A stretch of DNA of 63,722 nucleotides, the filler included. It is 13 parts of 13 records of this genome, joined end to end, with 100 filler letters (N's around TTAATTAATTAA, not from the genome) between each part and the next. Parts side by side here need not be neighbours in the genome. Positions count along the whole stretch, not along the records: positions 50,138 to 60,352 come from SRR7504441_10880; 12 more parts are not named here. One strand, 5' to 3'. This document shows, piece by piece, positions 2 to 63,722 of this stretch. The notes under the pieces were generated by a model. That model had not been told where the DNA came from. It worked only from the letters and a program-made list of their open reading frames with translations, and did not search any database. Within the stretch, counting starts at the first letter, position 1, and each line of letters begins with the position of its first letter. The translations under genes and the position numbers were made by a program.

Positions 2-4877
<4,876 letters not shown>

Positions 4878-15331: not shown

Positions 15332-15555
15332 TGCGCAGTCGGTACCACCGTCAACGCAAGCATAATAGTCATAAAATAGGGTTCACTTAAAATTAAAAAT
15401 ATCGATTCATTTGATCAATACTTGTAGATGATCCTTCAACTCTAATCTTGATTTAAATAGCCGTAATTACTCGTACGAAAGCATACATGTAATGATTAAT
15501 AATCATCATAATTACAATTATACATTGGTTATACGTCAGTGGATCACAATACTAC

Positions 15556-16753
15556 TCAACTGATTGAACAGCCATTGCACGACTCGCTTTCACTATCAAT
15601 ACCCACGCTTGAGTCGGCTTTGAAGCCTCTTGGAGAACTGAATAGCATCTGGCTAGTTGCATACTGCACTGCACGGCTATTCTCTTTTATGGCTGCAATC
15701 TGCACCTTGCGGTCTGCACGCAAGGCATTTGAAGCGTACTGGAGGGCCAGACCGTTCTGTTTGACAGCAGTCAGCGCTATCTGCTTGTCATCTCTCAGCT
15801 GCTCGGAAGCGTGCTCCAGTGCATTGCCGTCATTCCGCACCGCGGCAAGCACAACCTCCCTATCAGCCCGGAGATCTATGCTCCCCAGCCTGAGCGCCAG
15901 CCCGCAGCTGGAAACCGCAGCCATCAGCACGGCCTTGTCGCTCCTCATGGCCTCGGATGCGTACCACAGCGCGTTCCCATCGCTCCGGACCGCAGTAGTC
16001 ACCACCTCCCGGTCACTTCGCAGGCTCTCTTCAGCATACGCCAGAGCAAGCCCGTTTTGGTGGACTGCCGTGGTCACGACCTCCCGATCGGCCCGCCATT
16101 CTTCTTGGGCAAAGGCCAGCGCGAAGCCGTCCTCGACCACCGCGCTGAGCACTTCCTGATGTAGGACCAGCCCCGTCCCTCCGGTTGGGGACATCCACCA
16201 CCGGCCGAGTGTGCTCCGCCTCCTGATCCGGCGCAGGCCGTTGGTAGACATTCCGTCCGGGGGCGACCGGCTCTCTTGGGCGGGCCTGTTGCGCGCCTCG
16301 TCCCTACGCTCGCGGGGGAGGCTGGGCTCCCCGTCCCTAAGCTCTTGGGGGGGGCTGTTGAGCGCCGCGTCATCTAGGGGAAACACGCCAGCGAACGGCT
16401 CGTCCGCGGGCTGGTCTATCAAGCGCAGGAAGTGCTCGTCGGTGCTCGTCCACGTCGAGCTCTCGCTGGTGGTCGGGATGGGGCAAGGGTCGCTCGCCCG
16501 CCTGAATCGGCTAAGCGGGTTGGGGCTGGCCTGCTCCGGCGTGGGGATGGCCCGGGAGGGTGAGCTCTTGGTCGCTTGATCGATCGCCCTATTGGCTTGT
16601 GTTATCTGGGAGATGATGGTCTGGACCGACGGGTGAGGCCGATTCGGGCTCTCTGGCGCGGACATGCGCCTGATGAGATAAGGCGGGCGTCTCTTCGCGC
16701 TCGAGTCCGTTGTGACGCCAACGGAACGGAGAGCTGATGCAGCTCTCGACATG
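15556..16753 (-). CDS. DUF4116-type repeat protein with low-complexity N-terminus
   Basis: Six about 25-aa repeats of the form DREVVLAAVRNDGNALEHASEQLR. The start codon is uncertain. Confidence 0.8.
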
Positions 16754-16902
16754 GCCTCCTTTGCTTTTGCTAAGTCCGGCACTCACTGCGCCCATGGCGG
16801 CCNNNNNNNNNNNNNNNNNNNNNNNNNNNNNNNNNNNNNNNNNNNNTTAATTAATTAANNNNNNNNNNNNNNNNNNNNNNNNNNNNNNNNNNNNNNNNNN
16901 NN

Positions 16903-19900
16903 GGCGGAGGGCTGCTGCGCTTTTGTATTGAGAAGCACAGATGCGTCTTTTGCCGTCTATGGGGCCTTACACGGGACATCCATTAATCAGGATGGCCGCA
17001 CCGCGACCTTGACCTCTCCAAATGGTCCATCCCAACAGCGTATGCTCCAAGCTGCACTGCACCGTGCGGGCATCTTGCCTCTGCAGGTATGTGTGCTAGA
17101 GGCACACGGTACAGGCACAGCTCTTGGCGATCCTATCGAGGTTGCAGCTCAACGTACTACGTTGAGTACTGATCGGAACTCCGCAGAGGTGCTCGTCACT
17201 GGTGCTGGAAAGAGCATCTTTGGACACCTGGAGGCGTGTGCAGGATCAGCAGGGTTGCTAAAGCTCATTCTGGAATTGAGCCACGCTCAGGCACCACAAA
17301 ACATGCATCTGAAACACCGTAATCCCCACATCGATGTCATAGACTACGATGCACTGTTTCCTGGCTGCATCATCCAGGGTGGATACCGCAAAAAGAATTT
17401 TGGTGGAGTCAGCGCCTTTGGCTTTGGTGGAACCAATGCACATGCTCTGCTCAAAACGCCAACTGGACAGTTGAATACATTGATGTCTAGATTGGACATG
17501 AAGTACAAAAGAGAACCGTTCCCCTGGTGGAGACATCAGGTTTCCAAGAACAAGAATGCCTCGGATGCTAACTTGAGTGCTGGAATTACTGCCTTTGAAT
17601 ACTATGCACCGAATCTCTGCTGCGCAGTCGCTGAGATCGAGGAATGGCATGAATGTACGGGTCGGTACACTCAAGGGAGAGGCCAAGAGCACATAGGCTT
17701 TTGTAGTGACGATGAAGATACGGTATCGATGGCAATGACTGTGTTCGATCGCTTGGTTCAGACGCATACCTTAGATCTCTGTACGATTGGGAGATTGGAG
17801 GTTGGCACGGAGAGCCAAGTTGACCGAGCAAAGTCAATCAAGTCGTTCATCATGGCGTTTTTTGAACCTGAAGGCCTGTTTGACGTGGAAGGCGTTGATA
17901 CATACAATGCGTGCTACGGAGGTACAAATGCACTCTTCAGTACTGTAGGGTGGTTGCAAAGCTCAGCATGGGATGGCAGGCAGGGTGTGGTAATATGTGC
18001 AGATGCAGCTGTGCACCCACAAATAGAGGGGCTGCATACAATTGGAGCATCTGCTATTGCGATGCTTGTCGGCGCCCGAAACGGATTAGTCCTGGAGTCG
18101 AGAAGGGTCTCATTTATCAAGCATGCTTGGGACTTCTACCGTCCAATTGGCTGGCACAACAATGATGCACTTGTGGATATAGACACAGCCAGCCGTCAGT
18201 ATGAAGAGGCACTCCTTTGGTGTGAGCGTCAGTATGCTACCACTCTGGCGACACCAGACTTGCTTTCAGCATTCGACCAAGTCTTGTTCCACTGTAATGC
18301 TCCGTACCATTCGAAGAGGAATTTAAGGCTGATTTGTGAGGATCTGTATGGCAAGATGCCTCGCGAACAGCATGAAACTCTCTATCAACAATATGTAGAA
18401 CCTGGGGTTGCCATCTGTAAGCAAAATGCAACAACTTACACGTGCCCACTATACGCGTGTCTCCTTGCTACGAGTGTGCATTTTGGACCGAATCTGCGAT
18501 CAAAGCGAATTTTGTGTTTTAGCTACGGTTCTGGGTGTGCAGCAAGTATGTTTTCCATCTTTGTTCAAGACATTGCTCGCTATCCCCTCGACGTGTTCTC
18601 ACGATTGGCTTCTCGCAGTTGCAAGTCGGTTTCAGATACACTTAACATGGTAGAATATTTCGAAAATGCACACGGAAGTTTCCCTTTCGAGCCACGACAT
18701 ACTGAAGACAAGTGCTCCGGTACATACTACCTCGACAGACTTGGGGGTGATGGCATCAGGCATTATTCCAAACGACTGGGACAGAATGTCGCTGAGACCA
18801 AATTTGACAAAGGGATTGTTCATATGGAGCTTCTACAGGACTCTGCTCCCTTGGAGCTATTGCATAGTATTAGCGAGAGCTTCCAGGAAGGCCTCATCCA
18901 TATTCTATCCTCTTCTGGTCACGGTCTTAGCTCAGAAGCGTTGACTGAGACCACTACTGCTTCATGTTTAGTTGAATTGATCGCAAAATCATACGCAGTA
19001 ACTGCAGATTCCCTTGCCTTCTCTACTCATACCACTGCAGCAAGTGCTCTTCTGCTGCTGTCTGCTCTCTCAAGTAATTCGATTGATTGTACAAGCACAA
19101 GCCTCCCATCTGCCATTGAACAGTACGCTGATTATATCTGCATGCGCCAGTCTATGCCGAGTGCAGCAACAGGGCCACTTTTGCCAGTAAGGCCAGCTTT
19201 AAACATCTGGCTACCATTTCAAGTGCCTCATATTGTACACATGAGTTTGACTGATGACGATACCACTTCGTTGGCTCCAAGTATGCTGAATTGCAGACAG
19301 ACGCAGGCCATGATCCTACTTGTGGGGAGCTCTCGTCATCCTGCTGGCACGCAAAGCACGGCGCGTCGATTACTGCTCGTGTCAGAAGTCCGCACCAGCG
19401 TCCCAATACTCGCAGTGTTAAGCGGGACAGTTAGTGAGTTTGAAATGCCTGCAATTGTGGCATCAGATTGGCTGGTCTGTACCGCAGATGTCTGCTTTGT
19501 CAGTGAAATCCGCACACGCTTGACCCCAATTAGTTTTGCTGCTGCGGTCGAGCCTGATATTTTAAGTGCTCATCGGCACGCGATGGCAATGGCTGAGTGT
19601 CTGCGCAACGCCCCACAATTGGGTCTACAGCATACACTGACTCTCATGGCCTCGCATTACAGCGCATCACAACATGTCATTCAACAACCACCTTACAGTT
19701 CAGCTGCAATAGAGAAACGCTGTGGCTTCAAGATAGTCTCTGCCAATGACCATTCAGCAAAGACCCTGACTGAATGTGGTCATGCCGGATCGAAACTACG
19801 GCAAATGGGCCGAATGAAGGACCAAGAACAATCGGTGACAGATAAGCCGGTGGATTGTGAGATTCTTCACAGCTCAGCTCACAATACCATACTTCATGCA

Positions 19901-22353
19901 GGAAACGCCTTGTTGGCCACAGTCGACTCACAAGCTGGTCCTTTCGACCTCAAATTTGTCAATGCTGCATGGGAACAGACTGTTTCTTCTTGCATTGTGG
20001 TCTTGGAGTTGAACGACGCTCGCCACTACAATGCCATAGACCTACCGCTTGCCAAGGCCTTAGAGGTGCAGCTTCTGCAGTTGAGAGCATATGCAAGTGC
20101 TGGCGTTGACATCACGGGCGTGGTGTTGCAAGGGAGAGGGGCACATTTCTGCAGCGGCGGCGCGACACAGACAGACGCTGTGATGGCTCAGGCGCTACCT
20201 GGGTCTCTACCGAGCGCATCAGCTACCTACTATGCTTTGAGTTGCTGTCTTGGTGTTATGCGCGAGACGCCATGCCTTGTGGTCTCCAGTGTGCATGGCA
20301 AACTCATTGGTGGTGGGATGGCGACCATGCTTAACACTGACTGGCGGATCTGCTCACATTCTACTAGATTCAACCATGGTAATCTGCCCAGAAATGTGAA
20401 CCCTCTTGCAGGATACAGTTACGGCTTTGGTGCCTTGCTTGGACCATTTCAAGCAGGTAGGCTTTACTTGGAGGACGTTACAATAAGTGGTCGAGAGGCA
20501 CTTCGAATTGGCCTTGTAGATTCACTGGGAAGTAGCAGGTGTCACACTTCCTTGTGTGCACATGCTGCAGTGCATGTATTCGGAAGATTGTCACATCCGA
20601 GTGTAAAAGCAGGCAGTACAATCTCAGCACGGAGAATGCATCAGCAAATGCATGCCGAGAGTGTGCTGCATGCGACTTGCGCTCTCAGAAATATTGTTGG
20701 CACTGCTAAGGTCTACGATCGATATAGGCTCGTGTGTGATAAGGACCTCTCTGTAACTGTTGTGAAGGACCCTATGAGGACTCTGTTGCCCGTGGACGGC
20801 GTGGAGGTGCGCATGAGCGTGTATGGTCTCAACTTCAGAGAGGTGCTCTTCAAGCTCGGCATGGTTCCTATCAAAGACAATACAGTCGGGGTCGAAGGTG
20901 CGGACATAGTGACTAGAGTCGCTGCTGGTATAGACGAGGTGGAGGGAGGGCAGCGCGTCTTTGGTTGGATTGGTTCCGGGTTCGGGACTCACAGCCTGAG
21001 TTCAGGTAAATTCATGTGCAATATGTTGCCAACAACGAGCATGGAAGAGGCATCCAGTGTGTTCACTGGCTGGATCACTTGCAAGCACGCCCTGGGAGAC
21101 CTCTGCGCAAATCTGGCTGTGGGTGACTGTATCACTGTCCATGCTGCCACCGGAAGCGTTGGGATTGCAGCCACAAGCCTGGTCAGGAATCGAGGGGCGC
21201 GAGTCATAGCTACAGCAGGAAATTGCAGGAAGCGGTCCTGGCTATATCAGACTTCGGACGCGCATGTCAGCACAACACGCGACTCTGGTCAATTCAACTC
21301 AGACATAATACACTGGTTTGGCAGTCGTGCCAAACCGATAGCAGTTGTCCTGAATAGTTTGTCTGGCGAGTATATCAGGATTGGCTTCGACATGCTTGCA
21401 TCAGCTGCCCGATTTTGTGAAATAGGAAAACGAGATATCTGGTCCTCTGACAAAGCGCAAATTTGTCGTCCAGACGTGTCTTATCTACCGTTCGACGAGA
21501 GTACCATGATTAATCATCTGATGAAGCTACGTCCAACGCTGGAAGCTGCCAATTCGAGCCTCAATTCTTACACCTGCCCGGTGCAGATTTTTACTTCTGT
21601 CAGTTGCTCTCAGGCTTTCAAGTTCTTGCGCCATGCAGAGCACATTGGTAAGGTGGTGGTCAAGATGCTCGATGTTCGTCTGAACAACAAGGTCGACAAA
21701 TATGCTGTATGCAGCGCAGCGCCAGCAGTTGAGACCCCAGATCTAACTGATTTTGTCTCAGAGCTACGATTAGACAATGCTGCTGCCTGTCGGATGGCAG
21801 TGGTGGCCATGGTGCGTACTCATGTTCACGATCAAGGTTTGAGTAAAGTTGAACTTGACGACCCCTTGCTTGACCATGGAATAGACTCGCTTGGCTCAAC
21901 TGAAGTGGTAAACCTGATTCAACGCGACATTGGCACGTCAATTGATGTACCGTCTACTTTAGTCTTCGACTTTCCAACCATAAACACGATAGGGGACTTC
22001 TTGACTGCTCATTTGGCCGTTGAAGTTCCAGTTTCACCAACAAAAGTGATACATAACGAGTACACTCCGGTGACAAATCGACGGGCTTCTACTTTGATGT
22101 TAAGTGCCCAGGATTCCATATCTCCCGGTGGTTCCAGCTCATCGATCAGCGCATGGCTCGCGCTTTGTCATGCAAATGAAAGTGCAACTAGGGTTCCGAC
22201 TCAGCGTTTTGATATTGGATCTGTCTCTGAGCCCCTGAGTGCTCAGCATGGACACTTCGTACATGGCGCAGAGCTTTTCGATCGCACTTTTTTCCGCATG
22301 GGTGTTGTCGAGGTCGAAGCCACCGATCCTACACATCGCCTCCTACTCGAGAA
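16903..22353 (+). CDS. Modular type I polyketide synthase fragment: KS(C-half)-HMG-CoA synthase-ECH(degenerate)-ECH-ER-ACP-KS(start); partial at both ends
   Basis: KS: EAHGTGTALGDPIE, KSIFGHLE, SAFGFGGTNAH. HMGS: GRLEVGTES, NACYGGT, SYGSG. Crotonase: GAHFCSGG, VHGKLIGGG. ER: GLNFREV, HAATGSVG, HIGKVVV. ACP: GIDSLGS. The next KS begins VPTQRFD...FDRTFF...DPTHRLLLE. One uninterrupted frame. Confidence 0.93.
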
Positions 22354-22836
22354 NNNNNNNNNNNNNNNNNNNNNNNNNNNNNNNNNNNNNNNNNNNNTTA
22401 ATTAATTAANNNNNNNNNNNNNNNNNNNNNNNNNNNNNNNNNNNNNNNNNNNNAAGGGGGAATGCAAGACGATCGGAACTCCCCGTACTTAAAATGTTAG
22501 TCATGATTGTACTCGCGATCGTCCGTTTCGTAGACCATACAGTACTGGTAGTAATAACTGTATACTATAATCAATTAATTCAGAATGGATTACATAATGT
22601 CATACACTCTACAACAACTCAAACACGTCGTTCGAGGGATACTTCACCTACCAGTACTAGTCCCTCCTTCAGACTGGACTGGACTACGTACGACAACTAG
22701 TTACCGAAGTGTAATAAATTCTAGATCTCATGATCGGTATGGCTGTACTTACACGATGATTGTACCTGATGTCGATTCAGTAAACTAAGTATAACGTCGT
22801 TAATGATGTGCTATGATCGCAACCTCCATGAATTGA

Positions 22837-25800
22837 TCAGTATCCAACACATAAAGCTGCGAATTTGGAGCTTGAATCTGCTTTGAGCTTTTGTGGACTG
22901 TCATCTTCGACAATCAACCCGTCCTCGAGATAAATGACCCGATCATAGTTCATGATCCTGCCAACAACACTCTCAGACATTTTTTTACTTTACCACTCAC
23001 GTATCGATGCGGTGGGCAATTGTTAGCACTGTCATGCCTTGAAGATTTTGCAAGAGCGCTTCTTGTATCTGGGCATCTGTCTTCAAATCAATGGACGCTG
23101 TAGCCTCGTCCAGCACCTGGTTCAGGGGCTAAGTGTCTGGTCATTTGGCAGGATCAGACCAAGATCCGACTGCGGCGAAGGAGAGCACGCGCCAGACAGA
23201 CAAGCTGCCGTTGCCCTATGGAGAGATTGGCGCCACCGCTCTCCAATGGCATGTCCAGCCCCTGAGGATGGTTGCGGACAAAGTCGCCCAAGGCGGCGTG
23301 CTCGAGCACCTGGAGCATCTGCTGCTCAGCCTCGTTGTCGGTTGCAAATGGGTCGAGATTGTAACGCAGTGATCCTGAGAAGATGACCGGTTCTTGAGGA
23401 ATGCACGAAATCGCAGATCGCAGCGCTTGCAGAGGTACGGTCGTAATGTCACGGCTGCCTATTGAGATTGTTCCCGATTCCGGCCGAGTCATGAGGAAGA
23501 GCATTGAGAGCAGCGTGCTCTTGCCACTACCTGTTCGACCACAGATTCCGACGCGCTCTCCCTCGTTGATTGAAACTGTTACACCGTTGAGCACCAAAGG
23601 AAGCTCCGGACGGTATCGCATACGAACGTTACTGAACTCTAATCCTGTGACTAGCAGTTTAGTGAGAGCAGTGTAGCCAGGGCACCTGCGTGGGCAGGCC
23701 ATCGCTCCAGTGCGATATCGGGGTCGGGTTCAGCTTCAAGTGAGCAAAGTCGATCGAGCCGTTCAACGGCGACCATTTGGGTCTCGGCGCTCGTGAACTG
23801 TACACAAATTGTTAACGCTAAATTCTGCACGGGCACAGGCTACAATCGAAGCGCACCTGTCGAATCAGCCAGTTGAGGTAATCGGTAAAGGTGACCACAT
23901 AACTCAGCGCCAGACCGGCCATGCCTGCGTTGATGTTCCCATTATGGAATTCAAAGACGACCAGCATTGCCGTGCCGAGCACAAGCACGTTCCCGATGAA
24001 CTCCAACCTTACTGCGAGCCAGCGATTAGCCACTACACCCACAAATGCCGGCTTGAGGTTATAGTCCATCCTCTCAGAGTTCTCAGAAAGGAACCGGGGT
24101 TGGTCACGAAATGTGGTGATCGTGTCAACTCCGCTAAGCGTCTCGGCAAACGCAGTGTAAATGGGACTCAGTGAAGTCGAGGTGAGCCGCTGGACCTCCC
24201 TCGAGCTGTGGCGGTAATACCTTGCTACAGTGTAATAAATGTAAGCAAGCGGCACCAGCAACAGGCCGAGGAATGGAGTGGCGGCGAGAGCAACCCCGAG
24301 GGTACTGAGTAGGTTGAACAGCGAGAGCAGCATGCCCTGCAATGTCATGCGCATCTGCACGTCAATTACTTGCAGATCCTGAGAGAACCGGTTGATGATG
24401 CGGCCAAGCGGGTTCTCATCAAAGTATTTAACCGGGGTGTGGAAGACACTTGACAGAGCCTCGCCGTGGACACGCCGCCCTGCTGCAATGGTAGCGAAGG
24501 CAATTGTCGTGGCACGAGCCCAGATTAGTAGCATGGCCCCGGTTGCGAGTGCGGAGTACACACCTACGTAGTAGTCGGAGCTTTGCGCGCCTGGTTTGTC
24601 TGCATGATTGGACCAGTTGCTCAGCCAGACTGACGACCCTACCTGCAGCCCAGCCGCGAGAGCATAGATAAGCAGGGTAAACAACAGCAGCCGAGCAGTC
24701 AATGCCTTGGCATATCCGACCCAGATATGCTGTTTTACAAGACCCTCTTCGCTGTCTTCTTTCTTGGCAGCTGTGACGTTTGTGCCCTTTTTCTGCTTTA
24801 AGAGGTCTGCAGGCTCACTGGTCTTGCCTAAAGTCTCGCTATCCCCAGCTTTTTCCCTCCTGATCTTAGAAGTGCCCAGTGTCTCGTCAATGTGCGACTC
24901 GACCTGGTCCCAGCTTCCCTGCGCCGCAATTTTGCCATTATCCACATGCACTACCAGATCGCAAACCGGCAGCCATTGGATATGGTGTGTTGCTATCAAC
25001 ACGGTCTTGTCTCTAAGTAGCCCCTGCACGCAGCGTTCCATAATCCATTCCCCCACTCCACTGTCTACCGCACTAAGGATGTCGTCCATCAGGTAGATAT
25101 CCGCATCGACGTAACAGGCTCGGGCCAAGGCCACGCGGGCCCGTTGGCCGCCACTCAGGGTGACGCCTCTTTCTCCGATCTGGGTTTCTTCGTGGTCTGC
25201 CAAGGCTCGAAGGTCGTCCATCAGAGCACAGGCCTCCACAACACGATGAAATCTAGCCTCGTCAAAGGCGCGACCAAACAAGATATTCTCCTTGACGGTA
25301 GCATTCTGTATCCATGGCTGCTGCGCACAGAACGCCACCGAACCCCGGAGTACCACTTGGCCGGACTCGACTGGCATCAAGTTTGCCATGGCAGCGAGCA
25401 AGGAAGACTTTCCACAGCCAACTTTGCCCGTAATCCCTACCAACGCACCTGTAGAAACCCTGAGCTCAATCTCCAACAGTCTGAAGGGCTCGGCGGTAGC
25501 CTCTGCCTCCGGATCCTCGGTCGGTGCGGCTGCCCACGCAAATGAGGCGCTATTGGCAATCTCTACCGCATGTTCTCCAGGTTGGGTGCTCGAGTAGTGG
25601 CCGATTGCAAGCTGGGAGAGAGGGACAGGGTCTTTGGGCAACTCGTATGCGCGCTTCTCGTCTGCATTGAGGAAAGCGCTCAGTCTGGTGACAACTACTG
25701 ATATGTCAATTATCCGATTGATTGAGCCTGGGATCATACTCAAAGGGAAACGCAGCAGATTAAACAATGCCATCGATGTGAACGCTTTTGTAGCGTTGAG

Positions 25801-25953
25801 TGTGCGGCCCATCACCAATGTGTACACCAGGAACGTGGCGACTGTGACGAGCAGCGGCGATCCACCCCAGAGGAAGGCTCCAAAGGCGCCCCATAGGGCG
25901 TTGCCCTTGACTTGCTTCATTTCTTCCTGCCTCTTCTTGTCAATCGCCTGCAT
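22837..25953 (-). CDS. ABCC/MRP-family ABC transporter, 5'-partial
   Basis: NBD1: [25 protein letters not shown]2 follows. NBD2: [29 protein letters not shown]. Four short introns lie in the 3' part; stop at 22837-22839. Confidence 0.95.
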
Positions 25954-26440
25954 NNNNNNNNNNNNNNNNNNNNNNNNNNNNNNNNNNNNNNNNNNNNTTA
26001 ATTAATTAANNNNNNNNNNNNNNNNNNNNNNNNNNNNNNNNNNNNNNNNNNNNCTTACCTCCCCGGCCTCAGCACCCGGCATTAAAATCGGAACTCCACC
26101 AATGCTACTCCTAACGGCAGGCGGTTGGGGTTGGCAGTCTTGGCACGCGTACAGTAGACGGTAGCTATTACTCAAGCCGCAGCACAACCCAGATAAGCCA
26201 GCCGAGGTGCTGTGCCTGTCCTCGTGCCTCGCTGCCGTTCCGCCCGCCGTCCCATCCATTCGCTAACCTATCCCTCCTTGCTAGCTAGCTGTTCCGGTCT
26301 GTTCTGGGCCAGGTGCGGGTGGGTCGCTGCCGTGTATACCGTAGCTTGCCGGTGTGCAGCCTGCTGGTCCAGCCGTTGACCGGTACCTGAGCACCATGAG
26401 AACTGCTTGCTGCATGCAGGGCTGTCCGGATTCTGACCGC

Positions 26441-50863: not shown

Positions 50864-52968
50864 CTACTGGCCTTGTATCTGCGCGAGAACCGACTGCAGC
50901 TTCTTCATGTGGTCCTTGAGTAGCTGGGCATACCGGTCCTGGTCTGGCGACTTGCATTTGACCCTGTACTCGAGCTCTTCGATATCAAGTGAGTCGGCCA
51001 GCCCGGCCAGCGTGTCCAGCACGGTCCCGGCATAGTTGGCGCTCGACTTGTCGGGCCGCACAAACTGGTATTTCCACAGCCCGCTCTCTTTGTTCATTGC
51101 GAACTCGGACACGCAGGTCGGCTTGCCTGCCGCGAGAGCTCGGCCCAGCCGCCGGTTGGGGCGCACCGTGCATGTCAGCGGTCAGCCGAAGCATGTCCTG
51201 CGCGCCGCAGTCCACTTGCCGTGTGAAATCAATCACGGCGCCCTCGTCGCCCTGCACCGCCGGTTGGCTGGGGGTGGGGGCTGATCCACCTCGAAGGTAA
51301 ACCAGAAGCCTCCGTCCGGTTGAATAGAGCAGAGCAGGTCAATGGTCATCATCACGCCCTGCTTGTACTTGAGCAGCTCGTAGTCTGTGCCCGGCCGGTA
51401 CTCTCTGTTGGGGCAGAAGATGATCCCATCGGTGTGGTGGTGGTACAGGTGCTGCGGGTGGCTGGCTGAGTACATGAAGTGCCCATCGTGTGATGTCACC
51501 TGCCGGCCCTCGCCCTCGGCCGTTCCTGGCTGCCACCTTCTTCATGATCTCGGCCACGTGCTCCTTTGAGTACCATTTCTTCACAATCATCGGGAGCCCG
51601 GGCGGTTCGGTCAGCCCGTTGCTGTTGGCTTGATAGCCCTTGAGCACCCGCTGGTGCAGAGCGTCAAGCCGGCCGCTGAAGTTAAGCCTCATCAAGCTCT
51701 CGTTCCCGAGCGCCAGGATGTCAAACGCCACAAACACCGGACGCGACAGCTTCCTGCCCGAGCTGAGTCGGCCCGGCCCGGCCTGTTGAGGACCTGTTGA
51801 GGACCAGCTCACCGTCGATCACTGTCCCCGCTGGCAGCTGGGCCAGCTCCTGCAACTGACTAAGCCCGTGCATGTCGAAGCAAACCATCCGCCGGTCGAC
51901 CAGCACCGCCATGCCGCCATTGAGCACCACCACCAGGTACCGCATCCCGTCGGTCTTCTCTGAGACCATGTACTCCCTCGTCTGCACCTCCGGCACGTGC
52001 CGCCGCCGGAACGCGACCGGGTTGGCGCCGGGGAACCCACGCATGTCGTCCCCGCCCAGCCGCTTGCAGGTGTTGGCCACCTGCTGGATCAGGCTGGTGT
52101 CGGTCAGCTGCTTGGTGGAGATATTAGTCGAGGCCACCGGCGGGATCAGTCCGAGGTCCTGCGAGAAAAGCAAATACATCAAGTCCTGCTCGACCCTGCT
52201 GCTCTTGCCCAGCTGAGCCAGCCCCGACTGCTTCAGCTCGAGCTCGATCTCGCACAGCTCCCGCTGCTCGCCGTCGGCGCTCTGCTCAGCCACTTGAGTG
52301 AAGTCGGCCTGCCAGCCGAGCTGGCTGTGGCTCCAGCTGGTCCGCTTCTTGGTCCGCTTAGTCTGCCAGTTGGCCGGGGCCGTCTGTTGCTCGTACGGCT
52401 GCGGGGTCTCGCACACGGCCGCGATCCGTATATCGTACCGGCAGGCTGGGAGCATGATGTCGATGCAGTGCCGGGTGTTGGGCGGGCCTTCCTCGCGCAG
52501 CTGGATCTTCTGCTTGACCTCCTGGGCGAACACGCCCTCGGGGCTCTCGACTACCCTCGCCTGGGCCAGATTGTACGCCACGCTCAGGCTGGGTTGCTGG
52601 CTGAACGGCTCGGGCTGCCGCTGCTGGTTGTATACTCGCCCGCGCCGCAGCCGCTCCTGCAGCTGCTGGTAATCATCGGGTGACACTCCCGGCTCAAATC
52701 GGGGGCTGAACTTTTCGCGGTCCTGCAGCGTGAGCACGTACGGCATGGCCCCCGCCGCGTGCGCGCAGAGCCGCTGCCGGTGCCCGTCGGGCCGAGTCAT
52801 GACGAGCAGCCCCAGTCGGACCTCCACCTCCACCTCGCCCTTGGCCTGCCAGCCGGCCAACTCTGGGGCCAACTGGCTGGCCAACTGGCCGATCGCGGCC
52901 TGCAGCGGGTCCCGTGACCGGCCCGGCGGCGGGGGCGGCCGCTGCCGCTTGGCCGGCGGCTCTGCCAT
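50864..52968 (-). CDS. Bifunctional mRNA capping enzyme: CYTH/triphosphate-tunnel RNA triphosphatase + guanylyltransferase
   Basis: TTM motifs EVEVRLG, DIRIA, RTKKRTSW and CEIELEL. GTase motifs FPGANP, EKTDG, IDGELV, FVAFDIL, TDGIIF, LLKYK and OB-fold RPDKSSAN. Four introns of 37-40 nt. Confidence 0.9.
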
Positions 52969-53056
52969 GCTTGCGCTGGGTGCTCCGCTCGCCGTACCTG
53001 CGCAAGCTGCTCAACTTTCCGTTGGCTGGAACAGGCTGCTGTTGGGACCGGTGAGC

Positions 53057-53793
53057 ATGGAGCTGCTCAAGATTGTGGTGCTGGGGGACGGCGGGGTGGG
53101 CAAGACTGCAATCGTCAACGCGCTGGCCGAGCGCCAGTTCGAGCCGGAGTACCGGCCGACCATCGGTGCCGAGTTCATCACGCGGAGCTCGGAGCTGGCC
53201 GGCCGCCGGCTCACGCTGCAGGTGCGATCGCAGCCTGGCCGGCTCACGCTGCGATGCAGGTGTGGGACTCGGCCAGCCAGGAGCGCTTCCAGAGCATGGG
53301 GCTCGCCTTCTGCCGGGGCGCCGACGGCTGCGTGCTGGCGTTCGATCTAACCCAGCCGAGCAGCCTGGCCCGACTGGAGCACTGGAAGGAAGAATTCATC
53401 TACGCCGGCTGCCCCGACGATCCGGATACGTTCCCTTTCGTGGTGATCGGGAACAAGGCGGACGCCCCCGACCGGCGGGTGTCTGAGGCCGAGGCCAAGG
53501 ACTGGTGCGGCCAGATCCCGTATTACGAGACCAGCGCCAAGAGCGGGCAAGGGGTGGAGCCGGCGCTGGAGGCCATCTGCCGACTGGCCCTCAGGCTGCC
53601 GCTCGAGCCAGCTGCCCAGCCTGCTGCCGCTGTGCCGACCGCACCCAAGCCTGCTGCCACCACCGCCAAGATGGGTGCCTGTCGGGCCCTGCATGCTGCT
53701 CTCAGCGCCAAAGGGAAAGACGCCTGTCGGCCTGCAATCCAGGCGAGTCTGGACCAGGACATCGCCCGTGTGGCCAAAGAGTGCGCGCCCTAG
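53057..53793 (+). CDS. Rab7-like small GTPase (divergent)
   Basis: LLKIVVLGDGGVGKT, YRPTIGAEF, intron 53222-53259, WDSASQERFQSMGLAF.RGAD.C, FPFVVIGNKAD and ETSAK. Confidence 0.9.
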
Positions 53794-53957: not shown

Positions 53958-56900
53958 CTAAAACCATTCAGCCTGGGCTTTGAGCTCGGCCTCTGACAGC
54001 CAGCTTGCATGCACGCCAAAGGGGATCCGATTAGGCATCTCGATTCGGGCTACCGGCTCCGAACTGAGTGCCGCGGCATCCCAGATGCACAGCTCGGACG
54101 TGCCAATCCCGTCTTGCCCGGCGCCATTACCGTCAAAGATGAAATCGAGGAGATAGCCGTCGTCTTCGGCCGCTGCCTCGCGCTTCGGGACAAATAATGC
54201 CTCGCCGCCGAGCCTTTTATTGCCAAAGTCCACATCACTCACGATTGACTCGGTCTGCAAGTCGAACTTGACAAACCCGCTGTACATCTCGTCCTCGCCG
54301 CGTCGCATCAAGTAAGCCCACCGCGCCCCAGGCTTGCCCGCAAACTCGCGGTTGACTTCGCATCGCTCGGTCAGCAGATCGGCCGCAGCCGGGACCAGCC
54401 CGCCCGAGACCTGCCCGGACTCAAGATCGAGCACGAACTTGTGCAGCTTGGACGGCGGCTCGTCCGGGGTATGGATCGGCACGCTGCTCGGGTACTCGTC
54501 GAACAGCGGCATGTAGAGCACCAGCTTGCCGTCCTCGGTCTCCCAGCCGTTGACACAGTGCCAGTGGAAGCCTGTCCTGCCGGTGTCGAACCACCGCACA
54601 GCAGAAGGGTCGGCGCATGAGCGAGGAATTAGCCCGAACCGGACCGGGAAGCGCTGGTCAAAGTCGTACAGCTTGCCCTGGGTGAGCCCAGCTTGGTTGA
54701 TCCGGAGCGAGTGGTCCACCAGGATGAAGTAGTTCTCCGTGAGGAAGCAATCGTGCAGGAAGGCGGGCGGGGGCGAGCCGAGCTTGACGGGCATCTGATG
54801 CACTTTGAACGAGGCGTGGTCGACCACCCCGTAGGTGCACACCGGCGAGAACATCCCCGAGCCGATGTAGTGCGTCTGGCCAGCCGGCTGGTCGGTCTTG
54901 TAGTGGGCTGAGAACCGGTCAACTTGCCCGTCTAAATCGTCAAACTCGCCGCTTTGGACCACGCCAGTATTCGGATCTATTTTAATCTGGAACGGTGGGC
55001 AAAGCTCCATCACAGCGTACATTCTCCCCTCGGCATACCAGGTGGAGGTGGCCGTGTGCATCTTGCGATTATCGGCCAGCAGTGGCAGCGCGCCCGCCCG
55101 CATCCGCAAGGCCTGCAACCCGAGCTTGCGCGCCACTGGGATCCCTCCCAACGTCAGGTCTCCAAACGAGGCAAACAGCTCGCGCCCAGCGGCTTCATTC
55201 GCCACAAACCGCGGCGATCGGAGCCACGTGCAGCTGTACTTGAGCTGCGCAGGGTCCTCGCCCTTGAACCGCACGCAATGGATCATGGCGTCGCCGTCGT
55301 ACATGCTGAAAACAACAGGCGTTAGATCATACCAGGCACGGAAGCACTTACTGCTGCTTTCCCGACGGTTCGAAGCGCTGATTGGTGCCGTTCCGTACAA
55401 ACATGCCGTGCAGGTCGCCGGGAATGTCGCCGCTGAGCAGCTTGAGCTGGCTGTGCTGCGCTTCGGCTTTGATAGGCAGCATGTTGCCCCGGCGATACGG
55501 GTTGTCTTGATTGTGCACAGTGGTATCCCCGCAGGCCCCAGTCATGACTGCCACCAGCCGCTCCGCTTGCTCGACCGACGGCGGAGCCGAGCAGCCGATG
55601 TGCGACGGGCACATGAACGGGGACCTGACCACGCACTTCTGGACTCCTTCATACAGCAAGTAGTTACGGACGGCGCCTATCCCCGACTGGACGGCGGCGA
55701 GGTCCTCACCAGGGAAGGCTCCCCAGCTGCCACACTCAAACTGGAAGCAGCTCCCGGTCCAAGTGTTGAGCGCCACGGTCCCGTACTTGAGCTCGGCCAC
55801 CGCCGCCTCCACCTGCTCGGCCGGGCAGCTCGGGTGGGCCACCAGCGAGGCCGAGAGTGAGCCGAGCACCGACCCGTTCACAAACTCGGGCGCTGTCGAG
55901 AGGAAATCGCCAGGCAGAGACACCACCGCGAGCACCGGAGCAAACGCCTCATTCTGGAGCGCGTACGGGTGGCCCGGGCTGCCGAGCGGGCCGCTGGCCT
56001 GGTCGTAATCGATCTGGATGAGCAGCGCGGGCAGGTTAGGTCCGAACTTTGGGTGTGCTGGGCCGGTGGGGACGAGCGACTCGATCTGGCGAGAGGTCGG
56101 ATGCTCCTGCTGGAACCGGCGGTAGCGGGCCGCAGTGCCCGGGTAGTACGGGACGGCAGTCGGCCGCTGGGAGATGACTTGGGTGAGTTTGTCCAGAAAT
56201 TGCTGCTTCTGTGCCCAATTGTCAGAGAGCACGAGCAGCTTGGGCGCGTTGCAGTTGCAGCTGTTATTCTGCAGGAAAGCCGTGGCCAGGTGCCGGGCGT
56301 GGTGATCGAGCTCGGCCTCGCTGAAGACGGCCGGGGCGATCAGCCACGGGGTGATGCACCCGAGTTCGCTGGTGATCGGCTTCTGGAGCACCGGGCAGCT
56401 GGCAGCCTTGTTGGCCGCCTGCTCCTCGCCACAGCCCCACACGATCGCGTCGTGCGTGGCGGTGCCCCCGGTGATGTGCACGTGCTGCACCAGCCGGTGC
56501 TGCACCAGGGCCTTGCCCTCGGCCGCCCCGCCGATGAACGAGTGCAGGTAGCCCTCGCGGATCAGCGGCCCAAACAGGTACTCAACCCACTTGTGGTTGT
56601 ACTCGCGCACGGGGTTGTGCTTGAGCGCCACCACGGCCCCGTCCACGAACATGGTGTACAGCACGTCGCACATGGTCAGGAACCCCTGGTTGCCCGCCCC
56701 GAGCACCGCCGACACCCGCCCGAGCGCCACTCCGCCGAGGTGGTTGCGCCGGGCGTAAAACTTGCCCTGTCGCGCGGCCTCGGCCAGCCAAAGCTCGACC
56801 TGCCACTCCCTCTGGGGCCCGGCGGCGTCGGCCCGGCTCCGGGGGAACACTTTGACCCTCTGGCTGTCCAGCGGCTCGCCCTGGGGCGGGGCGCCGTCGC

Positions 56901-57228
56901 GCATTATCCCGGCCAGCGACTCCATCAGCCCCTCGAGGTCCCGGGTCATGATCCGGGTGTTGAGCAGCATCTCGATCGCCAGCAGTGGCCCGGCCTTGTC
57001 CGGGTCCAGCCCCATCGCCGTCAGCGAGTCGGCAGCCCAAGCCCGGTGGTCGGCCGCCATCATCAAGTCGCGCATCTCGCTCAGCAGCCCGAGCCGCTCC
57101 GCCAACGGCAGCGCCGCCCACCGGCCCTTGCGGCCAGCCAGCCGCTCGATCGCCGCCTCCAGCTCCGAGCCGCCCGAGCGCTCCCCGGGTGCCGGGCCGT
57201 CCGGGTCGGCAGAGCAGGTCGCGCCCAT
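53958..57228 (-). CDS. Aldehyde dehydrogenase - carotenoid/stilbenoid cleavage dioxygenase fusion (about 1074 aa, one intron 55306-55351)
   Basis: ALDH: VLGAGNQ, ITGGTATHD, TSELG and NCNAPK. In the same frame it runs into the CCD start NPYRRGNMLP...GDIPGDLHGMFVRNG.N. Intron GTAAGT...CTAAC...TTTTCAG restores HMYDGDAMIH. The four Fe-ligand His are in SAHYK, FLHDC, HWHCVNGWE and PFGVHASW. Confidence 0.9.
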
Positions 57229-57341
57229 ACAGCAGCTCTATGTGTCGCTCGGGCGTGCCGGCTGTGACATCTAACGGAATTCGGCTCATCGAGCAGCTCC
57301 CAGTGGGCGGATGGCGGAGGGTGTCGATGGTGTGTAGCACC

Positions 57342-57817
57342 ATGGACCTGCTGATAGATTCAGATTGCGGATTCGACGACATGCTCGCCGTGTGCATCGT
57401 CCTTGCTTCGCGCAGAGCGGTGCGTTTAAGAGGTATTACCACCGTGCATGGGATGACCACTCCGGGGCTCGGTGCCACCACAATGCGGCCCAAACCCCTC
57501 AAAAGCTATTGAGGAACGATTCAGACCTACTGCTAAAAGGCGAAGGGACAGTTTGCTGCCTTTATGATCCAGTTGCTGCATGCTATCTATTGGACCCAAC
57601 TGCATTCGAGTCAGAGCGCCTCGACATTGAGGTCCGCCCTGAGAATGGGGCTACAGAGATCGCCCTTGACAACAGCGCGAGGTCTGTCTGTGTGACGTTG
57701 CCAACCAGCTTCAAGGAGCCTTTCGGATACCGTCATATGCTTGAAAGGCTCATAACATCAGGGGCCTCGCAAGATGGTGCAGTGGATAATGACCGCGGCT
57801 GCTGCAGTTGGGTCTAA
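57342..57817 (+). pseudogene. Inosine/uridine-preferring nucleoside hydrolase remnant (N- and C-terminal parts only, out of frame)
   Basis: IDSDCGFDDMLA...GITTVHG stops at 57512. LYDPVAACYLLDP follows immediately in another frame. The central part of the fold is absent. Confidence 0.6.
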
Positions 57818-60466: not shown

Positions 60467-61693
60467 TTAATGCAACCGGACTGGGTTCTCCTGGTCATGA
60501 GTATCGGTGCCTATCGCTAACCGCTGGTTAGGCTTCAACTGTGGATGCTCAAACACGAGCTGCATGACCACTCTCTCCGCGTCGCAGCTGTTCCAGGCCT
60601 CGTGCTCAAAGCTATCGTCAAAGAAGTTGATCTGCCCCTCGGCCCAGCTCCGAGTCTCGTTGGCCACCCTAATCCTGGCGCAGCCCTCGCCCGGGACCCT
60701 CAGCCCAAGATGCCACTTGAGTTGAGTATTGCTACTCCCACAGTGAGGCCTCAGGTGGGCCCCGCTCCCAATCGACGACCAGCCCATCCGTTGAATCCGC
60801 ATCCCCGTCGCCGCCAGCCGCCGCCAAAGCGCACAAGCCCTAGGCGCCGCGGTCGCGCAGCCCTGCTCGTCCTTTGAGTGCCCTGGGCCGTTGAGTTCAA
60901 ACCTCCGCCAGTGGCCCCTCTGCGGGTCATGGATGCACTCGCGCTCCTCGCGCATCAGCGGCCGGACCTGCTCGTACTCCGCCGACAGCTCGGCCGTGGC
61001 TGCCATCATCAGCGTGGCGGCCGGCACAAGCCATCCAGCCAGCCCTGCCTCCATCGAGTGCCACGGCCGGGCCAGCAAGCCAGCCACGTACACCCCGGGC
61101 AGCTGGTCCGCCAGATCCCGCGCCCCGCTGGCCAGCACTGCCGCCACGAGCTCATCCGACCGCTTGATCATCGCCGTCCGGACAGCTGCCGGCATCCCAG
61201 TCGTGCTCCGGACTGTCGATCGGAGCAAATCGGCGTGCCGGATGGCGTGCTTGGGCCCAGGGCCGGGGAGCAGCTTAACGCCGGCCTCGTAGCTGTGCAG
61301 CGCCGACACCGGGTCCCCGGCGCACTCCAGGAGGTCCGCTCGCTGCATCATGAGCACCGCTCGAGCCCGGCCCGGCAGCTGCGCCGCCCTGCTCAGGGCC
61401 TTGTCTACCCACTGCACCGCCTCCTGGCTCCGGCCCAGCTGCCGTAGGTCCTCCGCCACCGCCGCGCACCCCACCAGCCACTCCGTGCCGGTTGCGGAGC
61501 CCTCGACGGCCCGCCTGTGGAGCTCCAGCGCGGCCAGCGGCCGGCCCTGTCGGAGCTCGTGATCCGCACGTGCCTCGAGCTGGGCCGAGCTCTCGTGGGG
61601 GGCGTGGTGCAGCCACAGAAGCCCCGCAACCAGCCCCAACAGCCCGAGCAGCCAGCTGCCCAGCCAGCTGCCCCGGCTCCTCTGCCGAGCCAT
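60467..61693 (-). CDS. Aspartyl/asparaginyl beta-hydroxylase-like 2OG oxygenase with TM anchor and TPR-like repeats
   Basis: N-terminal TM segment, TPR-like helices, GLLARPW, HLRPHCGSSN..LKWHLGL and FDDSFEHEAWN. Confidence 0.9.
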   Translation of the reverse strand: MARQRSRGSWLGSWLLGLLGLVAGLLWLHHAPHESSAQLEARADHELRQGRPLAALELHRRAVEGSATGTEWLVGCAAVAEDLRQLGRSQEAVQWVDKALSRAAQLPGRARAVLMMQRADLLECAGDPVSALHSYEAGVKLLPGPGPKHAIRHADLLRSTVRSTTGMPAAVRTAMIKRSDELVAAVLASGARDLADQLPGVYVAGLLARPWHSMEAGLAGWLVPAATLMMAATAELSAEYEQVRPLMREERECIHDPQRGHWRRFELNGPGHSKDEQGCATAAPRACALWRRLAATGMRIQRMGWSSIGSGAHLRPHCGSSNTQLKWHLGLRVPGEGCARIRVANETRSWAEGQINFFDDSFEHEAWNSCDAERVVMQLVFEHPQLKPNQRLAIGTDTHDQENPVRLH

Positions 61694-61737
61694 ACAAATA
61701 ACGGACTTCCGGCCAGCCGATCCAGGCTTGCAGCGCA

Positions 61738-63722
61738 ATGAGGCGGGCTTACCTTGCTCTGTTGCTGGCTGCGCTCGGGCAGGCAGCCCCACCAGCCCCA
61801 TCAGTGGTGCTCACTCAGCCGTCGACCGGCCGCCGCTTCCGGGTGCAGCCGCTCTCGTGCTCGCTGCTCCGCCTGGAGGCGGCCGCGGCCGACGGGATGT
61901 TCGAGGACCGAACCACCTTCCTCGTGCCGAATCGGCGGTGGCCGGGCGCCCCGCGCCTGCTCCGGTCCAACGGCACCCACGCCGCTACCAGCTGCTACTC
62001 GGTCGGGCTCACCGACCGGCTGCTACACGTGTATAACGGCTCAGGCGGCCAGGTGTGGCAGGCGAGCAGCCTGCGGGCCGTCAAGCCGCGCCAGGCCATG
62101 CCGGCCCCCGGCGACCAGTTCGACATGTGGGCGGTGCTCGACCAGCCCCGGTTCGCCGTCCCGAGCCAGGGGCCTCTGCCGGGTAGCGCGAGGCAGTTCG
62201 ATCGAAGCCGGCCGTCGGACGACGCTTACTTCTGGATTAAACCGGCTGGCACGCGGCTCGGGTATACCAAGCTGCGGAGCGACCTGCTCGCGCTGACCGG
62301 CCCGGTGCCGCTGCTCCCGGATTACGCGCTCGGGCTTTGGTTTACGTGGTATCATAACTACACGGCTGAGGCTAAGCTGAGTGAGATAAGAGAGTTTGGG
62401 CGGCGAGGGTTCGAGCTGAGTGTGGCCGGGCTGGATATGGACTGGCGACTGCACCCGTGCTACCCCAACTCGCCCACGCCCAACTGCTCGGACACCCCGC
62501 TCGAGACTGAGCGGCATTACGTGACAAACACAGGCCTGTTCCCGGACATGAGGCACTTCCTTCAGCAAGCCCATCTGCTCAATGTGAGCGTCTTCTTCAA
62601 CGACCACCCAATGCCCCCGTCCCCAGTAACGGACTTTCCCGAGCTCTCGCCGGCCGAGATCGAGTTCCGTTACGAAGGGCTCCGGTCGCAACTCAATGTC
62701 GGGCTCGATTTCTGGTGGTTCGACTGTCATTGGCACGACTTGATCCCAGGACTAAATGACACCGACGGGCAGCTCGACTACGTGGCCTGGGGCCAATACG
62801 TGTTCACCTCGGTCTTGGACGATTTCAACGCCGGAGCCAGCCAGCCGCCGGGCCGGAAGAAGCAGAGGACAGTTATGCTCGGATGCTCGAGCTCGTCACA
62901 TCGCGCCAACCACCGCACTCCGGTCTTCTGGACTGGCGATAACCACTACGACCAGCTGGCACTCGGAGTGGCGCAGATGGTCGACGCCGGAGTGGATCTC
63001 AAGCCTTGGGTACACCAGGACTGCGGAGGGCATCACGGCCCGGGCTCCGTGCTCGAGCCGCTAGCATATCCGGGAGAGGTCTACGCTCGATGGCTGCAGT
63101 TCTGCTCGCTTGGGACCATCGCCCGGCTTCATAGCGACCCGGGCATGTCCCGGCTGCCCTGGCTGTTCGGGCCGGGCGCCGAGAGGATCGCGCGCTCGTT
63201 TGTTCAGCTGCGAGCTCAACTGATGCCCACGCTGGTTGCGGCCGCTCGGCGCACCAGCCAGGATGGCACCCCGATCGTGCAACGATGCGACCTGAGCTGG
63301 CCCGATCTGGCCAGCGAGGGCGCCGGGCTGAGCAGCCAGTATCTGCTCGCTGGGGAGTTGCTGGTCCATCCAGTCGACCCGTTTGCAGGCATCCCAGTGA
63401 ACGACTCCTCAAAGCACACGTACTCGCCTCCGTCTGGCAAGTTTAACCGAAACGCCACAGTCTGGCTCCCGCCGGGCGAGTGGCACCACGCGTTCACCGG
63501 CCAGCGGCTCGAGGGCCCGCGTAATCTTAGCCTGACGGACGTGCCGGTTGACCAGCTGCCTTTGTTTCACAGGGGTGGCGGCATGCTCGTAACCAGCACC
63601 GGCCGAGGACAGGCCACCTGGGACCGGCCGACCCTTGAAATCTGGCCGACCCGTGCTGCTTTTACCAACCAGCCGAGTGCACGGACCGTTGTCGTGCAGC
63701 ATTTGTACCCTCCGAGTGACAG
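61738..63722 (+). CDS. Glycoside hydrolase family 31, signal peptide, 3'-partial (missing from the ORF track because it runs off the window)
   Basis: MRRAYLALLLAALG, LLRLE..DGMFEDR.TF, GPVPLLPDYALGLW, LDMDW, FWWFD (nucleophile), WTGD (acid/base), YARWLQF and VWLPPGEW. Confidence 0.92.
   Translation, partial: MRRAYLALLLAALGQAAPPAPSVVLTQPSTGRRFRVQPLSCSLLRLEAAAADGMFEDRTTFLVPNRRWPGAPRLLRSNGTHAATSCYSVGLTDRLLHVYNGSGGQVWQASSLRAVKPRQAMPAPGDQFDMWAVLDQPRFAVPSQGPLPGSARQFDRSRPSDDAYFWIKPAGTRLGYTKLRSDLLALTGPVPLLPDYALGLWFTWYHNYTAEAKLSEIREFGRRGFELSVAGLDMDWRLHPCYPNSPTPNCSDTPLETERHYVTNTGLFPDMRHFLQQAHLLNVSVFFNDHPMPPSPVTDFPELSPAEIEFRYEGLRSQLNVGLDFWWFDCHWHDLIPGLNDTDGQLDYVAWGQYVFTSVLDDFNAGASQPPGRKKQRTVMLGCSSSSHRANHRTPVFWTGDNHYDQLALGVAQMVDAGVDLKPWVHQDCGGHHGPGSVLEPLAYPGEVYARWLQFCSLGTIARLHSDPGMSRLPWLFGPGAERIARSFVQLRAQLMPTLVAAARRTSQDGTPIVQRCDLSWPDLASEGAGLSSQYLLAGELLVHPVDPFAGIPVNDSSKHTYSPPSGKFNRNATVWLPPGEWHHAFTGQRLEGPRNLSLTDVPVDQLPLFHRGGGMLVTSTGRGQATWDRPTLEIWPTRAAFTNQPSARTVVVQHLYPPSD

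Follow-up and report, generated by a model that had tools for sequence, protein, structure and literature searches.

Cleavage of a carotenoid by a carotenoid cleavage dioxygenase (CCD), followed by the action of an aldehyde dehydrogenase (ALDH), is a recurring route to bioactive acids, i.e., retinoic acid, neurosporaxanthin, crocetin/bixin and perhaps acids of the abscisic type. In every such route that has been described, the two enzymes are, to our knowledge, separate. The gene considered here lies on the minus strand of a 63,722-nt stretch of DNA (the whole of it is termed the window; coordinates are positions along it, and protein residues are numbered as in the spliced fusion) and is predicted to unite both activities. 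The account of this locus that is held to be on balance probable is that of one spliced gene encoding a 1074-residue two-enzyme protein, which would cleave a carotenoid or apocarotenoid, oxidise the resulting aldehyde to an acid, be acylated, and descend from a fusion of single origin.

During neurosporaxanthin synthesis the CAO-2/CarT oxygenase yields an apocarotenal and the ALDH YLO-1/CarD oxidises it to the apocarotenoic acid (PMC5133782). The likeness to the fusion lies in the order of the steps, a CCD-family oxygenase and then an ALDH, whereas CAO-2/CarT and YLO-1/CarD are two genes and two proteins and the fusion is one chain. The window ALDH belongs to a different, deeply divergent branch and its CCD is, by placement, closest to plant CCD1/NCED and an algal clade rather than to fungal CarT. 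The same two-step logic is found in the vertebrate BCO1/BCO2 and ALDH1A, which give signalling acids (retinoic and beta-apocarotenoic), and ALDHs oxidise beta-apocarotenals to acids (both PMC9003029); these proteins are separate and cytosolic, and the ALDH1A family is ~16% identical structurally to the window ALDH (9qze). In Synechocystis the ALDH slr0091 (SynAlh1) converts apocarotenals and alkanals (Trautmann et al., 2013, as cited in PMC7379126). Together with ACO, which is among the structural matches, it resembles the fusion in being a microbial oxygenase and ALDH, yet the genes are separate, unlike the fusion.

The solved structures nearest to the oxygenase half are Osmanthus fragrans CCD1 (7vud/9m6z) and the maize NCED VP14 (3npe), which share with it four His and three Glu. 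These plant enzymes, whose products are aldehydes or ketones, stand alone, whereas the window protein carries an ALDH ahead of the CCD, and identity is low. Plant CCD1 has no plastid transit peptide, and in this respect the fusion protein is like it. PutA (proline dehydrogenase and pyrroline-5-carboxylate dehydrogenase) is a known case in which a domain of the ALDH superfamily is fused to the producer of its aldehyde substrate, and its chains 4nm9 and 7na0 are among the profile matches; the partner domain and the chemistry bear no relation to those of the window protein, and the domains stand in the opposite order. PutA channels its intermediate, and for the ALDH-CCD protein channelling may be put forward as a hypothesis.

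Gene structure and fused relatives

A first frame of 626 codons runs on the minus strand from the ATG at 57228 to a TAA at 55350-55348. Since an in-frame stop lies three codons 5′ of this ATG, it is the first possible start in exon 1. The preliminary description of this DNA, made from the letters of the sequence, had noticed that the ALDH frame continues into the N-terminus of a CCD, and the beginning of the RPE65 profile (Pfam PF03055) is indeed found at the end of exon 1: residues 585-622 match profile positions 3-41 weakly (E 0.0021, below the Pfam cut-off when taken alone). A second frame, 55304..53961, covers profile positions 47-468 with E 4.2e-73 (247.5 bits against a cut-off of 27). 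Excision of 55351..55306 (GTAAGT...CTAAC...TTTTCAG) joins the two into a 3225-nt frame of 1074 codons with 0 internal stops and restores the split His codon (CA/C) at residue 626. The joined protein aligns without a gap over the splice to eight fused homologues, with which it has in common, at this point, the motif G-K-x-H-M-[FY]-D-G-[DE]-x-M-[IL]-H.

The intron had initially been called a textbook one. Restoration of the frame and the His codon, as well as the gap-free homology, agree with this; the splice signals by themselves do not, since the loose pattern GT[AG]AGT..CT[AG]A[CT]..YAG has 2 matches in the window against a mean of 2.6 and a maximum of 7 in 30 Markov shuffles. Motif statistics that are not above chance were not used as intron evidence, and the intron is convincing because the frame is restored and the homology has no gap. 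Very short introns do occur in this genome, as a nearby Ras-family gene holds a GT-AG intron of 38 nt (53222-53259). A sequencing frameshift in place of an intron was rejected, as it would leave ~15 extra residues that are absent from every relative.

At least ten sequences besides the window protein are fused in the same way; those counted as distinct are P0003-P0006, P0019-P0022, P0175, and P0182, and they are 38-64% identical to it. UniRef is not among the listed sources of any of these ten. All seven "longer" matches of the search with the CCD half carry the same ALDH in front (one is N-truncated), and four of the ten "longer" matches of the search with the ALDH half carry a CCD behind, while P0175 and P0182, which are near-length matches, start inside the ALDH and continue into the CCD. 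In P0003 and P0004 the architecture is ALDH-ALDH-CCD. Continuity of the two domains is seen in nucleic acids of several types. P0006 is a Trinity transcript ORF holding both domains, and the contig of P0019 (L001; 3452 nt, mRNA-like, with A8 at its 3′ end) has a single ORF over both, 59% (ALDH) and 64% (CCD) identical to the halves of the window protein. L002 is genomic DNA with one unbroken, intronless ALDH-ALDH-CCD frame of 1683 codons and a neighbour gene on the opposite strand, and L003 is a genomic fragment (65% identity) that spans the junction and has introns at other positions.

Two side observations concern these contigs. A second, very distant RPE65-family gene is present in L002 (5391-7046, minus strand), convergent with the ALDH-ALDH-CCD gene and ~120 nt away from it; its Pfam E-value is 1e-63 and its BLASTP E-value to the window CCD is 0.06. 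The end of L003 (about 2020-2101) consists of a repeated 7-nt unit (CTCCTAA-like), which may be telomeric or a simple repeat.

The linker at the domain boundary (residue ~565, near 55534) is conserved in all fused homologues, which excludes an assembly chimera, and with it the chimeric join near 55540 that had been named as a possible flaw of the fusion. It is very improbable that the locus is not expressed as a fusion, i.e., that the intron is retained (giving a 626-aa ALDH with a CCD stub), that the CCD is a separate or dead gene, or that the assembly is artefactual. The intron begins with an in-frame TAA, supplied by its own GTAAGT, so that an unspliced message would terminate there, and its motif is at chance level, both of which would fit such a case. 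Yet exon 2 alone would be without the first ~50 residues of the propeller, which sit in exon 1 in the frame of the ALDH; the spliced product is co-linear and gap-free with ten fused homologues, transcripts and an intronless genomic ORF included; no disabling changes are found in either half; and the linker is kept. From comparison of sequences, the locus can be regarded as confirmed to be a real, spliced gene that encodes an ALDH and then a CCD in one chain, placed on the minus strand at the coordinates first proposed for it. The single polypeptide of the preliminary description is upheld by homologues of the same order and junction, by transcript-type contigs, by the intronless genomic ORF and by matching trees.

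The statement that no characterised fusion of this kind is known needs to be modified. No description of a natural ALDH-CCD fusion was found in the full-text literature, a coverage from which subscription journals and survey supplements are largely absent, so that an earlier listing in a table is possible. To this extent the statement holds; the architecture is not unique, given the sequences counted above, and the name of one JGI record (P0020) already mentions both activities. Judged by these sequences, the ALDH-CCD architecture is present in several other microbial eukaryotes and is not a peculiarity of this genome.

The oxygenase and dehydrogenase halves

On the grounds of its sequence, the CCD half is a complete non-haem-iron carotenoid cleavage oxygenase with plant CCD1 and NCED as the nearest solved relatives. 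His760, His810, His875, and His1058, as well as Glu726, Glu939, and Glu994, align with the metal-site residues of VP14, so that all four iron-binding His are present, as was noted earlier; none of these four His and three second-shell Glu varies within a set of 8 fused proteins. Their roles as iron ligands and as second-shell residues, respectively, are those which we take over from VP14 and ACO.

A carotenoid-type substrate is favoured over stilbenoids, as far as can be judged from the E-values, from the best NCBIfam model and from the annotations of relatives. VP14 and CCD1 match the sequence with E 2e-42 to 4e-41, against 2e-20 to 5e-14 for stilbene oxygenases; ACO matches more distantly (E about 2e-15). 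Among NCBIfam models, the highest score is that of apocarotenoid 13,14-dioxygenase (NF052295), 139.8 bits, which is below its equivalog cut-off of 675, and the lignostilbene dioxygenase models NF053778 and NF053780 give 97.7 bits (cut-off 800) and 72.9 bits (cut-off 650), also below. Of the relatives that bear a name, the nearest are annotated as carotenoid oxygenases, from algae and bacteria. It is quite unlikely that the oxygenase, within the same fused architecture, acts on a non-carotenoid alkene (a stilbenoid, an isoeugenol-type phenylpropanoid or another lipid-soluble olefin) to give an aromatic or other acid. LsdA, NOV1, and CAO1 do share the fold (TM 0.80-0.86 by target), a lignostilbene dioxygenase model scores 97.7 bits, and no CCD subfamily cut-off is reached; the difference in sequence E-values, the rank of the NCBIfam models, the Foldseek E-value and identity, which are best for CCD1 and VP14, and the annotation of the relatives all argue for a carotenoid enzyme. 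The aromatic acid that had been offered as one of two possible products, arising from a stilbene or isoeugenol, is thus the less likely one.

The ALDH half matches Pfam PF00171 (Aldedh) with 45.3 bits against a cut-off of 23, and the match is confined to residues 226-354. In an alignment of 40 sequences of its branch, N180, K203, E288, C326, and E427 are invariant. The profile of this alignment matches the solved ALDH 3ty7 (E 1.2e-10), with E288 at the Glu of ELGG, C326 at the catalytic Cys and E427 at the Glu of EE-FGP; the catalytic Glu (TSELG) and Cys (NCNAP) named in the preliminary description therefore stand in place. We equate E288, C326, and E427 with the corresponding residue numbers of classical ALDHs, and the conserved Lys203 and Glu427 are presumably equivalent to residues of the cofactor site of those enzymes. 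The AlphaFold2 model of exon 1 has a predicted local distance difference test score (pLDDT) of 88.2 and a predicted template modelling score (pTM) of 0.87, and is confident over ~20-565, the trailing CCD stub being disordered by itself. All PDB matches listed by Foldseek for this model are ALDHs (TM 0.60-0.72 by target, 13-17% identity).

Taken on its conserved residues, the ALDH half is a catalytically intact member of a large, unnamed and deeply divergent branch of the ALDH superfamily. This branch has 1944 representatives at E<=1e-3 and 562 at E<=1e-30, most of them stand-alone proteins of 540-620 aa, and the look-alikes of the ALDH half in the Atlas are bacterial. No characterised member of the branch was found in the literature. 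Other fusions within it were examined in eight cases: six are joined to an AMP-forming acyl-CoA ligase (with or without PX) and one to a GMC oxidoreductase, the non-CCD fusions being P0007, P0008, P0010-P0012, P0091, and P0138, two of which have a PX domain. These ALDH-ligase and ALDH-GMC proteins, multi-step enzymes of aldehyde and acid chemistry by their architecture, seem to be uncharacterised as well.

For the full-length protein, the homologue P0019 (1071 residues; its CCD half is 64% identical to that of the window) was modelled with AlphaFold2 from a 60-sequence alignment. The model has pLDDT 93.7 and pTM 0.91, with pLDDT 87-96 in the linker, and supports the seven-bladed beta-propeller fold of the CCD half. 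Its best PDB matches in Foldseek are plant CCD1 and VP14 (TM 0.83-0.84 by target, 26-28% identity), and among these matches no solved chain covers both domains. A pTM of 0.91 for a two-domain chain of 1071 residues implies a defined mutual orientation of the domains.

Origin, proposed reaction and its alternatives

A phylogeny of each half, which had been suggested as a check on the fusion, was built from hand-picked subsets of matches. The CCD tree (28 rows) comprises all fused forms, the ten nearest near-length matches except P0184, and eight bacterial or bacterial-like sequences out of 120 listed; the ALDH tree (50 rows) includes 31 of 150 listed representatives, of 520-660 aa, among P0025-P0061. 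The fused forms cluster together in both. All CCD-fused ALDH domains, both copies of the doubled forms included, make up an 11-row clade with a Shimodaira-Hasegawa-like approximate likelihood ratio (SH-aLRT) support of 98. In the CCD tree the eukaryotic sequences are one group (SH-aLRT 100), and all fused CCDs fall in a 17-row clade (SH-aLRT 81), outside which stand-alone algal CCDs are found (Mesostigma viride Mv16636, P0176, P0178). P0019 is the sister of the window protein in either tree, and the two trees resemble each other in branching order. Each fused clade also takes in one "stand-alone" row (P0026 for the ALDH, P0179 for the CCD), either of which could stem from a fragment, from a gene call that was split or from secondary fission. 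Since the fused forms are one clade in each of two separate trees, the data suggest a single, ancient fusion event, after which the two halves would have been passed on together within a clade of microbial eukaryotes. A giant-virus origin is not supported, as a scan of viral contigs gave 26 pattern matches and 0 confirmed relatives.

In the proposed reaction the oxygenase would split a double bond (C=C) in a carotenoid or apocarotenoid, setting free an aldehyde that the fused dehydrogenase would oxidise, using NAD(P)+, to the carboxylic acid, in this case an apocarotenoic acid; the ordered linker would hold the two domains in a fixed arrangement. This two-step chemistry, along with channelling, is what we infer from active sites that are conserved and a model that is packed, with both of which it is consistent. 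The catabolism of prey pigment, which had been suggested as one possible role, draws no support from any of these data.

The enzyme would probably be found on the cytosolic face of a membrane through N-terminal acylation. With the ALDH fold beginning near residue 20, a signal or transit peptide would not fit ahead of it, and for this reason an acylation-based attachment is proposed. N-myristoylation follows a rule of Gly2 with a small residue at position 6; the window protein conforms to it (Gly2, Ser6) and has Cys5 nearby. Four of the eight fused proteins with an N-terminus to judge start with MG and have a small residue at position 6 (window, P0005, P0006, P0021), and L001, which lacks one codon to reach a start, begins with G-Q-T-C-S-A-D, a counterpart to the MGATCS of the window protein. 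The suggestion that MGATCS fits myristoylation and palmitoylation thereby gains some support, and membrane tethering is plausible from the motif.

The sequential reading, CCD and then ALDH, receives indirect support by analogy, i.e., from the fusions of the ALDH branch to enzymes of aldehyde and acid steps, from the known two-protein routes, and from one metagenome contig, L004. There, a stand-alone ALDH of the same branch (964-2730, plus strand; 40% identical to P0019) is followed by a CCD gene with a hydrophobic N-terminus (2756-4402, plus strand), 25 nt apart and operon-like; this is the sole such adjacency found. L004 was also considered as a fused gene with an intron and rejected as such: the DNA shows a stop, a 25-nt gap and a new ATG, hence two genes.

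Several points weigh against the overall account. In this genome, splicing and expression of the fusion are deduced from sequence comparison. The ALDH half reaches no NCBIfam family cut-off (the best score is 22.6 bits against 615), and a PDB search with it as a single sequence returned no relative. The CCD half shares no more than 26-31% identity with solved CCDs and scores under every NCBIfam equivalog cut-off. A fixed domain packing is deduced from the pTM, and the function of both the fusion and the ALDH branch is deduced from sequences and models. No CCD was seen in the fetched flanks of stand-alone ALDH metagenome loci (0/76), nor was this ALDH seen within 6 kb of a related-clade CCD at bacterial genome loci (0/78; these 78 were found by scanning genome contigs with a bacterial CCD alignment). 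Within the window, no carotenoid gene stands beside the fusion.

The unlinked bacterial members (0/76 and 0/78) would also suit a fused protein whose halves do not act in sequence, the ALDH serving other membrane aldehydes (fatty or from lipid peroxidation), being CoA-acylating, or contributing mainly to oligomerisation or localisation. So would its closest non-CCD relatives, as their fusion to acyl-CoA ligase and the lipid-binding PX domain hints at fatty or lipophilic aldehydes in general. Nevertheless this is unlikely: the two active sites are retained without exception among the fused forms, the halves would have evolved together from one fusion event onward, the predicted model is compact with an ordered linker, and some lineages have doubled the ALDH and kept one CCD, which fits a catalytic rather than a scaffolding role. 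The sequential CCD-to-ALDH reaction can be extended, tentatively and with low confidence, to a single-chain "apocarotenoic acid synthase", dually acylated, that would take its carotenoid from the bilayer and pass the aldehyde along an internal route, in some lineages with two ALDH modules, and whose product would be a signal of a retinoic-acid-like or a xanthoxic/abscisic type.

Genomic setting and meaning of the fusion

The window is eukaryotic, GC-rich (0.47-0.66) and gene-dense, with long ORFs and tiny introns. The features of the fusion gene and the two genes that flank it are collected in Table 1.

Table 1. Coordinates of the fusion gene, its parts and its two flanking genes in the window
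Feature	Position	Strand	Remarks
ALDH-CCD fusion gene, whole coding region	53958..57228	-	ATG 57228 to TAG 53960-53958; 1074 codons once spliced
Exon 1	55352..57228	-	Residues 1-625 and first two bases of His626; ALDH domain, linker, first ~50 CCD residues
GT-AG intron, 46 nt, phase 2	55306..55351	-	In-frame TAA inside its GTAAGT
Exon 2	53958..55305	-	Third base of His626, residues 627-1074 (remaining CCD propeller), stop codon
N-terminus MGATCS (Gly2, Cys5, Ser6)	57211..57228	-	Candidate N-myristoylation and palmitoylation site; kept in relatives
ALDH-superfamily domain, about residues 20-565	55534..57171	-	Pfam, AlphaFold2 (pLDDT mostly >90), Foldseek, profile alignment
CCD/RPE65 domain, about residues 572-1074, split by intron	53961..55515	-	Pfam, PDB sequence matches, homologue model
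Glu288 (TSELG)	56365..56367	-	Aligned with general-base Glu of ELGG motif in solved ALDHs
Cys326 (second Cys of CNCNAP)	56251..56253	-	Aligned with catalytic nucleophile Cys of solved ALDHs; invariant in family alignment
His760, putative first iron ligand (FSAHYK)	54903..54905	-	Alignment with VP14
His810, putative second iron ligand (FLHDCF)	54753..54755	-	Alignment with VP14
His875, putative third iron ligand (FHWHCV)	54558..54560	-	Alignment with VP14
His1058, putative fourth iron ligand (FGVHAS)	54009..54011	-	Alignment with VP14
Ras-family small GTPase gene	53058-53793	+	Convergent with fusion gene, ~165 nt between stops
Inosine-uridine nucleoside hydrolase-like gene, start	57327-57509 onward	+	Divergent from fusion gene, ~100 nt between ATGs

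The nucleoside hydrolase-like piece of 61 aa scores 31.1 bits, below the cut-off of 34.2, and continues in another frame, probably across an intron too. A single ORF at 51721-53010 (minus strand) combines a Cet1-type (beta chain) RNA triphosphatase domain with an mRNA guanylyltransferase domain. Elsewhere in the window there are a protein with TPR and aspartyl/asparaginyl beta-hydroxylase domains (60467-61810, minus strand) and a glycoside hydrolase family 31 gene (61702-63720, plus strand) that runs off the window end. Positions 10000-26000 have a GC content of 0.47-0.55, against 0.57-0.66 in most of the remaining window, and hold EF-hand proteins, a polyketide synthase-like ORF and an ABC transporter. 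An ORF of 1848 codons in this lower-GC part (16859-22405, plus strand) contains a ketosynthase C-terminal domain, HMG-CoA synthase N and C domains, an enoyl-CoA hydratase and a phosphopantetheine site, i.e., a polyketide beta-branching cassette in a single eukaryotic ORF. The Rfam scan of the window gave no match.

Both domains of the fusion belong to known superfamilies and the chemistry is familiar, while the fusion itself is conserved and uncharacterised. As a "Rosetta stone", a conserved fusion of this kind would link the orphan ALDH branch, with its 562 representatives at E<=1e-30, to the oxidation of apocarotenals, and since the domains are packed with confidence in the model, substrate channelling lends itself to direct testing. 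The fusion is also a pointer to an as yet unexplored apocarotenoid acid of protists from marine or freshwater habitats, and might serve engineered hosts as a single gene, ready to use, for the production of apocarotenoic acids. Should the more tentative proposal of a single-chain apocarotenoic acid synthase be true, protists would have an acid-apocarotenoid hormone pathway that is built unlike those of animals and plants, and the large orphan ALDH branch would have its first function.

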